Origin: Schmidtea polychroa
Lineage: Eukaryota
Assembly (NCBI GenBank): GCA_044892525.1
Contig: CM097885.1
Span: 10,480,001-10,544,000, forward strand
Length of the DNA: 64,000 nucleotides
Direction of reading: 5' to 3'
The stretch's first letter is position 1. Each line of letters starts with the position of its first letter. The notes beneath the pieces are model-generated. The model did no database searches, had not been told where the DNA came from, and saw only the letters and a program-made list of their open reading frames with translations. Of this stretch, positions 26,906 to 59,300 are shown piece after piece. The position numbers were made by a program, and so were the translations under genes.

Positions 26906-29900
26906 AAGTTATGGGGTAGAGAATTATTATATGTTTGCAATATTCTGTGTTTGCCTTTACAGGAAGTTGTCAATAAGGAGCGATAATTTGACACACACAC
27001 ATTCTATATACACATACCTTGTTTAACATGGGTGTATATACTCCTAGTTTATCCGACAAAATATTCTGTCCCCCTAAGGGTACTGCTAGCAAGGGTACTA
27101 CTCACATTCAACATATCGCAAGGGTATATTAATTAGGGTTAGTAAATAAAACTTATGACACATACTATTTAAACGATAAAAATCAAGACAAGAGAGGACA
27201 AGGCAAAGTTTATGCATTTAGTATTGCCAGGCCTAATGAGCAGTGACCAAATATCTGTGCCTGAAAGACACGGTGGATATTTGTTCGCGTCCACAAGGGT
27301 CGTCTGTGCCTCCCCCAAGTGGGGTCAGAAGAACCTGGGCATTATAGCTTTCCGTACGGAACATTACGCCTAGCATGGGTAGTCAACTACCAGCACATTC
27401 GAAACGTATAATTTCAAAATACATGCGTCATTGGCACTATAACCAAATTAATTAATGTTTTCACTAACACAAATATATATTTACAGAGGCCTCCCACTAG
27501 TTGGATTACAACCGCCCACCACGACGATCAGCTTGTAAATATATATTAATTAAGGGATAAAGAGGACCCACCCAACCCTATTATATTTAATTTACAAATT
27601 TTTCTCGCTCTTCTGCTGGTATTCTATCTCAAAATTATCATCTCCATCGGGCCATTTGATAGTGATTTCATGGAATACATCTTGCAAATTGGACATATTT
27701 CTTAGTTTCTGATGCGGTGTCAACTATCATTGCTAAAATTTATATTGATTTAAAAGCAATTAACTTACATTATCTAGCATTTTATCGTCACAGGCTTGAT
27801 AAATTAGGCAACTGTTATTTGTGGTATACTTTTTCAATGTCATTTCCCACCATAAAACACAGATACCTAAATATAATATATATATATTTTAAAGAATTAA
27901 TTCATGTCTTACATTAATAATAATATTCTTCAGGTAGTACTTTACAATATCTAATTGATAAAACATCGGTTTTTTCCCATTTTTCTTGACATTCGTTGAA
28001 AGTTTACATAATTTAAGTAAACATTCATGTTGAAGGACACCCCCAATCAGCTAATTCATTTAAGAAATCCCGAACATAGCAATGTTTCACCATTTTGTCT
28101 GGTTCATTTTCTTCTATAATTCATGTTTTAATAAGAAATTTCTAAATCCAGAACATAAGTCATTTAGTGTTTCACCATTTTGTTCATCTTCTTCATAATT
28201 ATATAATTCATTTTCTTCATTACTAAGTAAAATAATTAAAATATTTTAGTAAATTCTTTATTTACTTACTTTATGGATACTAAAACGAAAGAAATAACGT
28301 TATATCAGAATTATATTTAAATAATTTAAATTTAGTTATTTAAACATATTTAAACAATTTAGTTATTTAAGCATATTTAAACATTAACATTATTATATAG
28401 TATAATTTTATATAATTTTATATAATATTATAATATTATAATATTATGTATTGTAAATTTAATATATCCTTAATTTAATTTTTTAAATTCAAAAATTTAT
28501 AATGAAGATTCTTTGAATTAAAAAATATTCTGTTAGTATTTCCAGGCAGAAAACAACGAATTCAATAATTAAAATCTTAATTTTCATGTTGTTAGGGTTG
28601 TGGCCAGAAGTTAATCGCCATCTAATCGTTTGTTCTCAATTTCGCTCATTTTTGTTCAAAACATTCAGGTGAGTTGTTATCTGGAAAGTTTCTTTGAGCT
28701 CAGTTTTGTTAAAACACTCACGGTATTCTTGAGGGACGTGACACTGGAAATAAATTAACAATGGGTGGTCATACATACATGTTGTTGGTTTGAACTGTTG
28801 ATTTATTTTAGAAATATGTATATTAAAAACATTTAAGGTATCATTCAGTAAAATAATATAGTATTTTTGAGTATTTTTAGTTAATTTATAAATAACAGTA
28901 TTTTGATATATCAATAAAGACCATATACTCCTAGTTTATCCGACAAAATATTCTGTCCCCCTATGGGTATTGCTAGCAAGGGTACTGGTCACACTCAACA
29001 AGTCGCAATATTAATCATTTAGAAATTCTTAGGTAAGATAATCAGAAATTTGTGAATATTTTAAATGTAACTTTACACTTATGTCGAGCGACTAATTTAT
29101 TGTTTAACTTTGTAGTCATTTAAAGCAAAAGGTAATTTATTCATCTAATGTTCGTTACAATAGATAATAATATGAGAAAAACATGGTCATTATTCATTGA
29201 TAATTTTAAATTCTTTATCATTTGGAGTAAATTTGTTTGAGGCAAAAATATTTGAAGGAGTCATAATAGAAATATGGTTATCATTTAACCAAATAAGGTG
29301 CTTATTAGTTAAAAATATATATTTATATAGGGTTACAATTCTTTTCTAATTTAATTAGATGATCATTAGACGTAATATATCTTTGCGAGAAATTTAAGAT
29401 GTTTGAGTAACCAAAACATTGATATTTTGGGTCATCAATTTATGAATAGTGCTTAATTTTCTCATTTTTAGTGATTTAAAATAATATTTAGCAAAGGTAA
29501 TTTGGCAAAATATCACTTATCCATCCGATAACAATATTCCTTCAATAGATATTCAACCGATTTAATTTCTAATTAAAATCATAAAATTCCTTCAATAAAG
29601 ATCAATTTTCTTTAGCCGTTGTCGATTTCCAACTTTTAAGTCAATATTTCTCAAGTTTTGTCACTGATGTCCCCACAATGAATAAAATAACTTCTTAAGT
29701 AAATAATTTAAAGCAATAACCTTTGATATCAATCCCAATTAATTCTAAAGATTTCAAATATTTCATTGTGAAAACCAAGTAAATTGATCATTAACCCTAA
29801 ACGACTTAATAAAACAGTGGATAATTAATAAAAAACTGGTTCTAAAACATAAATCTAAATTACTGTGCAATAACATTCATCACAACCTAATAAACCTCTA

Positions 29901-56300: not shown

Positions 56301-59300
56301 ACAAAGTCATCATCATCATCAAAATTAATAAAATATAGCAAATTATCAAGAAATTAATTAAATTTATCTTAGAATTAACACTAAACCTTAAATATTCTTT
56401 CAATTAACATGAAATTCACAAAAAAATATTAGTAAAATCCCGCTAACTCTAAAAAATTACCAATGAATTTAATGCCAAATAATAACCAAATATTTGCCTA
56501 AATATAATCATTAAAACACACCAGTACCTTTACGACCAGTACCCTTACGACCAGTACCCTTACGACCAATACCCTTACAAGCAGTACCCATAGAGGGAGA
56601 AAATATTTTGTCGGATAAACTCCGAGTATATATATAATAAAACGAATTAACAATAACTCCATCAAATTGAATCAGTCAAATTATCACAAATTTTAATAAA
56701 AAATCTTATTCTAAAGTGGTAAGCAGCGTAAAATCGAAAGATAATTTTAATAACACAGAGATAAAATTAACAATATTATTCTCAGGTGGTAAGAATCATC
56801 ATTATTCTATGATTAATTAATAATGAAATTCAAAAAGGTGAAAATAAGGGTTTGAATTATTCATTAATGGAACGTAAATGTAAATATACCGAGAAGTGTC
56901 ATAGATAAGATGGAAATATATTAATTGCATTTATTTAAAATTATTTCATGAGGGATCGGTTAATGTTTTGAATATTTATATATTCTTATTGGTAAAATAT
57001 CAAATTTTCAAGGGAAATAGTCAGCTATGAATAGTTCCTGTGAAATTATATCGTTTTAGAGGTTGTGATGAATGTTATTGCACAGTAATTTATGTTTCAG
57101 AACCAGTTTTTATTAATTATCCACGGTTTTATTAATGGGTAATGACTAATTTACTTGGTTTTGACAATGCAATATTTGAAATATTTAGAGATAATTGATA
57201 TCAAAGGTTATTGCTTTAAATTATTTTATTTAACATTTTAAAGACGGACATTCATTATGAAGATAACGGTAACAAAAATATTGACTTAAAAGAGTTAGAC
57301 ATCGACAACTAAAGAAAATTTAACTTTCATGAAGGAAATTTATGATTTTAATTATATTTCCAGAAATTAAATAGGTTGAATATCAGTTAATCTATTGAAG
57401 GAATATTGTTATCGGGTGGATAAATGATATTTTGCTAAATTACCTTTGCTAAATATTATTTTAAATGACTAAAAATAACAAAATTAAGCAATATTCATAA
57501 ATTTATCGCACAAAATGTCCATGTTTTGGTTACTCAAACATCTTAAATTTCTCGCAAAGATATATTACGTCTAATGATCATCTAATTAAATTAGAAAATA
57601 ATTGTTACTTTATAATATATATTTCTAAATAATAGGCCCCTTAATTGGATAAATGATAACCATATTTCTATTATGACTCCTTTAATTATTTTTGCCTCAA
57701 ACAAATTTACTCCAAATGATAAAGAATTTAAAATTATCAATGAATAATGACCATGTTTTTCTCATATTATTAACTATTGTAACGAACATTAGATGAATAA
57801 ATTAATTTTTGCTTTAAATGACTACAAAGTTAACCAATAAATTAGTCGCTCGACATAAGTGTAAAGTTACATTTAAAATATTCACGAATTTCTGATCATC
57901 TCACTAAATTACCTAAGAATTTCTAAATGATTAATATAGCCTTGCGACATGTTGAATGTGACCAGTACCCTTGCTAGCAATACCCATAGGGGGACAGAAT
58001 ATTTTGTCGGATAAACTAGGAGTATATGGTCTTTATTGATATATCAAAATACTGTTATTTATAAATCAACTAAAAATACTCAAAAATACTATATTATTTT
58101 ACTGAATGATACCTTAAATGTTTTTAATATACATATTTCTAAAATAAATCAACAGTTCAAACCAACAACATGTATGCAAGACCACCCATTGTTAATTTAT
58201 TCCCAGTGTCACGTCCCTCAAAAATACCGTGAGTGTTTTAACAAAACTGAGCTCAAAGAAACTTTCCAGATAACAACTCACCTGAATGTTTTGAACAAAA
58301 ATGAGCGAAATTGAGAACAAACGATTAGATGGCGATTAAATTCTGGCCACAACCCTAACAACATGAAAATTAAGATTTTAATTATTGAATTCGTTGTTTA
58401 CTGTTTGGAAATACTAACAGAATATTTTTTAATTCAAAGAATCTTCATTATAAATTTTGAATTTAAAAAATTAAATGAAGGATATATAAGTGTACATAAA
58501 ATTATAATATTATATAAAATTATACTATATAATAATGTTAATGTTTAAATATGCTTAAATAACTAAATTGTTTAAATATTTTTAAATAACTAAATTAAAT
58601 TATTTAAATTTAATTTATTTAAATATACTTTTGATATAACTTTATTTCTTTCGTTTTAGTATCCATAAAGTAAGCAAATAAAGAATTTACTACAATATTT
58701 TAATTATTTTACTTAGTAATGAAGAAAATGAATTATATAATTATGAAGAAGATGAACAAAATGGTGAAACACTAAATGACTTATGTTCTGGATTTAGAAA
58801 TTTCTTATTAAAACATGAATTATAGAAGAAAATGAACCAGACAAAATGGTGAAACATTGCTATGTTCTGGATTTCTTAAATGAATTAGCTGATTGTGGGT
58901 GTCCTTCAACATGAATTATCAGACTTAAATTATGTAATCTTTCAACGAATGTCAAGAAAAATGGGAAAAACCGATGTTTTATCAATTAGATATTGTAAAG
59001 TACTACCTGAAGAATATTATTATTAATGTAAGACATGAATTAATCTTTTAAAATATATATATATTATATTTAGGTATCTGTGTTTTATGGTGGGAAATGA
59101 CATTGAAAAAGTATACCACAAATAACAGTTGCCTAATTTATCAAGCCTGTGACGATAAAATGCTAGATAATGTAAGTTAATTGCTTTTAAATCATTATAA
59201 ATTTTAGCAATGATAGTTGACACCGCATCAGAAACTAAGAAAAACATCCAATTTGCAAGATGTATTCCATGAAATCACTATCAAATGGCCCGATGGAGAT

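Follow-up and report, generated by a model that had tools for sequence, protein, structure and literature searches.

INTRODUCTION

Concerted evolution of inverted arms is already known from chromosomes and from foldback transposons. In adenoviruses, replication proceeds by protein-primed strand displacement, the displaced strand anneals to itself as a panhandle, and the short repeats are corrected inward from the terminus. Polintons, or Mavericks, are virus-like, self-synthesizing transposons that are known in non-autonomous forms as well, which have been entered in Repbase. Here we examine two long palindromes, A and B, which look like separate insertions of non-autonomous Polinton/Maverick-type elements in a stretch of 64,000 nucleotides from Schmidtea polychroa (GenBank assembly GCA_044892525.1, contig CM097885.1, positions 10,480,001 to 10,544,000 of the forward strand; hereafter the window), and we ask how the two arms of each copy have become nearly identical over their inner parts. 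Positions are those of the window throughout.

Mavericks are described as ending in (AGT)2//(ACT)2 or (AG)3//(CT)3, with a 6-bp duplication (PMC8097293). A and B share the former ends, the 6-bp duplication, and a length of 12–15 kb (ranges in PMC8097293 and PMC10748475), but the terminal repeats given there measure 46–1,447 bp, whereas the arms of A and B measure 5.5–7.1 kb, four to five times the longest. They also differ in carrying no core gene (pPolB, integrase, ATPase, protease, or capsid) and in the concerted state of their inner arms. In the standing model, an excised, single-stranded, racket-shaped Polinton intermediate is copied by PolB (PMC4196379, PMC11131425), and truncated virophage elements are reported to regain terminal repeats (PMC8547959). 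In contrast to adenovirus inverted terminal repeats and copy-back defective genomes, A and B are integrated, with their ends least alike and their centers most alike.

The Galileo/Foldback elements of Drosophila likewise have long inverted arms with internal repeats. Extension of the arms, chimeras, and non-autonomous copies made of two arms are also described for them, and their identity of 98–100% within a copy, compared with 92–97% between copies, resembles the contrast reported below (PMC3573991). Galileo is, however, a cut-and-paste element of the P superfamily with a 7-bp duplication and arms of at most ~1.3 kb, whereas A and B have a 6-bp duplication, and no transposase frame was seen in them. 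Galileo chimeras are described with non-matching flanks; copy A has differing termini yet a perfect duplication. Palindromes of sex chromosomes show <0.2% arm divergence against 0.9–5.5% between lineages, together with rearranged spacers, as in A and B (PMC8327919), but these are fixed, gene-carrying, immobile loci without transposon ends. In a literature search that mostly did not extend to subscription papers, Repbase Reports, and supplements, we found no description of giant gene-less palindromic Polinton-type elements or of homogenized Polinton arms, though Repbase entries could contain such elements. Such elements are not described in the available sections of PMC6431247, PMC8502044, and bioRxiv 10.1101/2022.07.12.499685. 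New here are the measured by-copy pattern, its polarity, its gradient, and the evidence from rare alleles.

RESULTS

Inner arms are alike within each copy

Self-comparison of the 64-kb window yielded A and B as two long palindromes (Table 1), with arms of 5458–7112 bp that make up 91–95% of each element. AGTAGT was found at all four ends, and both copies are bordered by a perfect 6-bp target-site duplication within unrelated flanks. Because of these ends and duplications, and because no gene could be recognized inside them, the two look like separate insertions of non-autonomous Polinton/Maverick-type palindromes. The first-pass annotation had placed both within 27700–59250; the elements reach further on either side.

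The left and right arms of A (AL, AR) and of B (BL, BR) were then aligned from 26904/52723 inward, giving 3196 columns. Identical bases filled 2859 of these, while 127 substitution columns and 170 gap columns grouped AL with AR against BL with BR. Not one column grouped left with left, and none grouped AL with BR. The remaining 40 columns were single-arm or mixed, with 7 at the outer edge, 4 just beyond the end of the B arm, 17 at a 16-bp indel in A and its adjoining bases, and 12 elsewhere. Over columns 100–3170, AL and AR differed by 5 substitutions in 2993 sites and one indel event, and BL and BR by 5 in 2968 and two indel events; between A and B arms there were 127–129 substitutions in 2892–2909 sites and 25–26 indel events. 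The inner arms thus differ by 0.17% within a copy vs 4.4% between copies, though private indels and a 4-site patch are retained.

It had been claimed at first pass, from a 92-residue open reading frame and from indels, that arms are homogenized within each fold-back copy and differ between copies. The four residue differences in that frame are as described and common to both arms of each copy, and the indels follow the same pattern. A four-way alignment and tree of the arms had been proposed as a check, and the quartet tree was (AL,AR),(BL,BR) with support of 100/100, with no grouping of left arms across copies. The claim therefore stands for the inner arms (127 by-copy vs 0 by-side substitution columns) but not for the outer 2–3 kb, which are a patchwork. 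The pattern supports arm-to-arm copying in the inner arms, since lineage-specific substitutions and indels, including alleles rare in the family (see below), lie on both arms, and since the centers of A and B have one layout.

Outer arms are a patchwork

Left/right differences were concentrated in the outer arms, and the best left/right match was found at the center. The two termini of A differed at 8 of their first 55 bases, those of B at none. In the first 214-bp unit, three sites paired AL with BR, and in the second unit 16 of 18 variable sites were by-copy. An exact tract of 380 bp is common to AL and BR, and another of 420 bp to BL and BR. A 707-bp duplication is present in AR and not in AL, BR has a segment missing from BL, and BL has a deletion. 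In a terminal fold test, a small stem was obtained at three of the four ends (z −2.0 to −2.8) and none at the AL end (z 0.04).

This patchwork, with its left/right differences, speaks against complete correction in every cycle, as well as against end-first repair of the adenovirus type. Panhandle correction had been suggested in the first-pass annotation by analogy with adenovirus, but it predicts that the ends should be most alike. The wider suggestion made there, that one arm is re-templated from the other during each replication cycle, keeps its core of arm-to-arm copying and loses the whole arm in every cycle, given the differences in the outer arms and at the A termini, unless all of these arose after insertion. 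Exchange between elements, a process that the annotation had missed, is indicated by the outer patchwork together with the gradient described below.

Divergence between copies rises toward the centers

Going inward along the arms, A and B differed at 8 of 750, 33 of 1195, and 74 of 818 sites (p 1.5e-16), and the loop of B differed from the innermost arm of A at 108 of 937. Divergence between copies thus climbs from 1% to 11% toward the center, and AL and AR differ at 1 of 1085 sites in that innermost arm. Checking identity along the arms, as also proposed at first pass, therefore gave near identity of left and right inside, and an uneven A/B divergence that falls toward the ends.

The centers of A and B have one layout, in which the center of B corresponds to the right half of A, reversed, with ~1.6 kb missing and a short imperfect homology at the junction. 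The B center may be read as an A-like center after loss of ~1.6 kb. Arm/loop borders differ between the copies (31110/31805 in A, 55801/56949 in B). As a further sign of an unstable center, loop segment 31589–31644 is replaced by a short T run in other family members. No excess consistent with GC-biased conversion was seen when the paired arm of A was compared with its unpaired homologue in B (36 vs 39, p 0.82), a weak test of low power.

Independent sequencing runs contain a large family

Part of 27000–31804 was contained in 19 independent sequencing runs, four of which were mapped onto 26900–31804 as short contigs, none of them arm-spanning; runs with small shares (X6–X15) were left aside. 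Matches were found in all four (82,556, 12,484, 13,018, and 389 contigs), and since many of these were 82–95% alike, the family is large and diverse, dispersed in many copies. Summed depth over the arm was 1.7, 3.3, 3.3, and 3.9 times that over the loop (medians of 21 arm bins and 4 loop bins; 5 of 30 bins, at motifs or borders, were omitted), where depth is not equivalent to copy number.

For variants, we compared 36 of the 40 rows listed (310 more existed), omitting three nearly confined to one small run and one in the loop. Sixteen of these 36 sites had one base on both A arms and the family's other base in B. At 29103, 30678, and 30782, both A arms have a base that accounts for 0–6.4% of summed depth in all three large runs (X16, X17, and X1), while B has the majority base. 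The best reading of such family-rare bases on both A arms is that young changes were copied from one arm to the other; polishing of the assembly toward the family is an unlikely source, because it would erase rare alleles from both arms. The residual left/right differences at 27695 and 29164 are alleles segregating in the family, so that exchange between elements (or polishing bleed-through) is indicated rather than new mutation. Loop haplotypes ~10% apart were present (13 differences in 136). One diverged contig ended exactly at 31110 and was considered as a fold-back junction, but was too weak to count.

The arms contain no recognized gene

The longest frames in the arms reach ~105 residues and lie within repeats. 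Arm frames gave no matches in Pfam (two frames) or PHROG (seven frames), and among the open reading frames of the window no P-type transposase frame was seen in A or B. Substitutions in the short arm frames mostly alter residues. The 92-residue frame was rejected as a gene, as all five of its A/B substitutions change a residue and it had no Pfam, PHROG, or Atlas match; a 1-base insertion at 28873 within it was present in all four runs. There were no Rfam matches within the window, including in 27150–27650, the most GC-rich arm segment (~35%), which is also the segment most alike between A and B (~1%).

A repeated motif of ~90 bp had 13 matches in the window, all within A and B (25861–61014), with three to four per arm and none expected from 100 shuffles. 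It is a putative promoter or binding site. Used as a probe for a helper, it had no matches in viral contigs and none in metagenome contigs. Downstream of the motif, at 28778–27733 (− strand), there are four intron-like GT..AG stretches of 31–41 nt, two of them overlapping, with four or more found in 8 of 500 shuffles. These could possibly mark a spliced non-coding or dead transcript.

A gene-bearing Polinton and host sequence lie nearby

A Polinton/Maverick with recognizable genes occupies the start of the window. It was considered as parent or helper of A and B but is not supported in that role, since it has another terminus and none of its 12 frames had a tblastn match in A or B. Subterminal tandem arrays are found both in A and B and in this element. 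Its TBP-like gene (514–1029, −) matches Pfam PF00352 (5e-16), and its integrase (2240–3403, +) is split between two frames, the break lying near 2758–2780, and this copy may be defective. The pPolB frame (9344–13468, +) has a polymerase core matching Pfam DNA_pol_B_2 (7e-32), an endonuclease VII-like stretch (residues ~630–677), and N-terminal tandem repeats of 27 and 51 bp; the polymerase had no matches among PDB sequences. Three distinct tandem arrays, with units of 24, 113, and 70 bp, lie between the protease and polymerase genes (7827–8706). Outside this element, a C-terminal fragment of a hAT transposase was noted at 16645–16989 (−), as well as a host channel exon (Table 1).

Table 1. Features of palindromes A and B and of their surroundings (window positions)
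Feature	Position	Strand	Remarks
Copy A	24274..38916	.	14,643 bp; arms 95%; (AGT)2...(ACT)2 ends
Copy B	50344..62887	.	12,544 bp; arms 91%; (AGT)2...(ACT)2 ends
A, left target-site duplication CACAAC	24268..24273	+	chance ~1e-4 (flank composition)
A, right target-site duplication CACAAC	38917..38922	+	matches the left one
B, left target-site duplication CGTTTC	50338..50343	+	chance ~1e-4
B, right target-site duplication CGTTTC	62888..62893	+	matches the left one
A, left outer arm	24274..26998	+	terminus, C-run, 214/195-bp units, 17-bp array, AAT arrays, 65-bp units; patchy vs right arm
A, left inner arm	26999..31110	+	~6 substitutions in 4.1 kb and one 16-bp indel vs right arm
A, central loop	31111..31804	.	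694 bp; 31656–31804 homologous, reversed, to the end of the B loop
A, right inner arm	31805..35900	-	partner of A left inner arm
A, right outer arm	35901..38916	-	707-bp tandem duplication (~37038–38451), absent from left arm
B, left outer arm	50344..52254	+	patchy vs right arm; third 214-bp unit with deletion
B, left homogenized arm	52255..55801	+	5 substitutions and 2 small indels vs right arm (aligned inner part)
B, central loop	55802..56948	.	1147 bp; mostly one unpaired homologue of innermost A arm, 11.5% from both A arms
B, right homogenized arm	56949..60491	-	partner of B left homogenized arm
B, right outer arm	60492..62887	-	~60690–61050 of a type not present in left arm
92-residue frame	28636..28914	-	TTG start; usable marker, no sign of gene
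92-residue frame	33985..34263	+	as above
92-residue frame	54437..54715	-	as above
92-residue frame	58036..58314	+	as above
Repeated motif, ~90 bp (one copy)	28909..28982	-	imperfect dyad, then TATA-like run; short tandem units before it
Neighboring Polinton/Maverick	1..15204	+	ATPase, integrase in two frames, protease, pPolB, TBP-like gene; terminal repeat unlike A and B
Host DEG/ENaC channel exon	22123..22770	+	9 of 9 matches are flatworm proteins

DISCUSSION

We consider arm-to-arm copying, together with exchange between elements, during extrachromosomal replication to be the best reading of these data, with a probability of roughly one half. A helper in the same genome would supply the integrase and the protein-primed polymerase, and A and B keep the ends that these would need; mobilization in trans by pPolB and integrase is suggested by those ends. 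Strand-displacement synthesis from the termini would free a single strand that is 91–95% self-complementary. A nascent strand that has passed the center could pair with the first arm it has already made and use that arm as template for the second; within the folded stem, mismatch repair would have the same outcome, in patches. Template switches among co-replicating family members would exchange the outer segments of a single arm. Until a fold-back followed such a swap, left and right would differ over the stretch between terminus and switch point (~27000 in A and 52255 in B), and slippage of the arrays would add further differences. Correction would be frequent, yet some cycles would leave it incomplete. 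Fold-back combined with template switching would account for arms that are nearly identical beside the loop and outward from it, for differences that start at the terminus and extend inward, and for an A/B divergence that declines toward the ends.

The main alternative, which we regard as a strong rival but less probable, is that host repair converts arm to arm within the chromosome. Hairpins or breaks would arise close to the center of a long inverted repeat whose spacer is 0.7–1.1 kb, the opposite arm would serve for repair, as in sex-chromosome palindromes, and ectopic conversion among many copies would scramble the outer arrays. It requires no unobserved intermediate, and the high identity beside the loop agrees with it. 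Palindromes of the primate X show a like contrast within and between, as well as central instability (PMC8327919), and repair by non-allelic recombination has been proposed for repeat extension and chimeras in Galileo (PMC3573991). Conversion in the chromosome leaves unexplained, however, why a mobile family should be palindromic over >90% of its length, and why A/B divergence declines toward the ends in both arms together. The missing GC excess also speaks against it, though with low power and for a host bias that need not exist. Alternatively, A and B could each have folded back recently from diverged linear parents, with no ongoing homogenization. Their differing arm/loop borders, the short imperfect homology at that of B, and the regrowth of terminal repeats after truncation in virophage elements (PMC8547959) would suit such an origin, and among the contigs listed none bridges the A border in a diverged haplotype. 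We think it unlikely, as a single fold-back would make the outer arms identical too, and the B center tracks the right half of A exactly, such that one deletion suffices. The existence of loop haplotypes ~10% apart also counts against it, as does an arm depth of 1.7–3.9 times the loop, which is expected if most members are palindromic.

That arm collapse or mirrored reads created the identity during assembly or polishing seems very improbable to us. The family evidence does come from short contigs of other runs and not from reads of the assembled individual, and bleed-through from polishing could explain why two residual differences coincide with family alleles. Yet each copy has two termini, a matching 6-bp duplication, and unrelated flanks; the outer arms differ; the inner arms have private indels and the 4-site patch; family-rare alleles are kept on both arms; and independent runs show a drop in depth at the arm/loop border.

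Several points weigh against copying during extrachromosomal replication. The extrachromosomal form and the replication intermediate are postulated, and none was observed. Neither the window nor the motif scans of viral and metagenome contigs yielded a helper: the neighboring Polinton has different ends and, beyond its lack of tblastn matches, shares with A and B one AT-rich blastn match of 42 bp. Two full copies were examined, and with two, replication-coupled copying and chromosomal conversion are indistinguishable; chromosomal palindromes without any replicon reach like figures, <0.2% within and 5.5% between species (PMC8327919). Within the outer zone, identical and differing tracts alternate, so that a single clean switch point is over-simplified, and the outer part of the divergence gradient may reflect constraint instead of exchange. 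Among the 15 joints listed of 279, none showed a strand change at the arm/loop border, and the runs, none of which is from the assembled individual, may derive from other populations.

Taking copying during replication as the preferred reading, we tentatively suggest, as a less certain extension, that elements of the A/B type are satellite replicons of Polintons, a DNA counterpart of copy-back defective genomes. They would retain origins only, undergo self-primed fold-back from the center outward so that one arm is rebuilt from the other, swap ends with relatives for helper compatibility, and then integrate, perhaps with a spliced non-coding transcript behind the promoter-like motif. Genomic copies would then form a fossil series of the proposed racket-shaped intermediate, readable where left/right identity breaks down.

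The first-pass annotation had also judged both insertions recent. Intact target duplications fit this, but arm identity is no safe clock if conversion continues, and it should not be used naively for dating such insertions. How Polintons replicate is put forward as a proposal in the literature (PMC11131425, PMC4196379). A family of very many copies, each with a pair of 6-kb arms, is of particular use, in that it can separate the alternatives by sequence alone. Correction at replication predicts that arms age like pairs of long terminal repeats, whereas chromosomal conversion predicts that they stay alike. The family also points to an origin for long palindromes, and likely for fragile sites, in the host genome. 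If overwriting at copying is true, its copies would be a natural record of the replication of a virus-like element.

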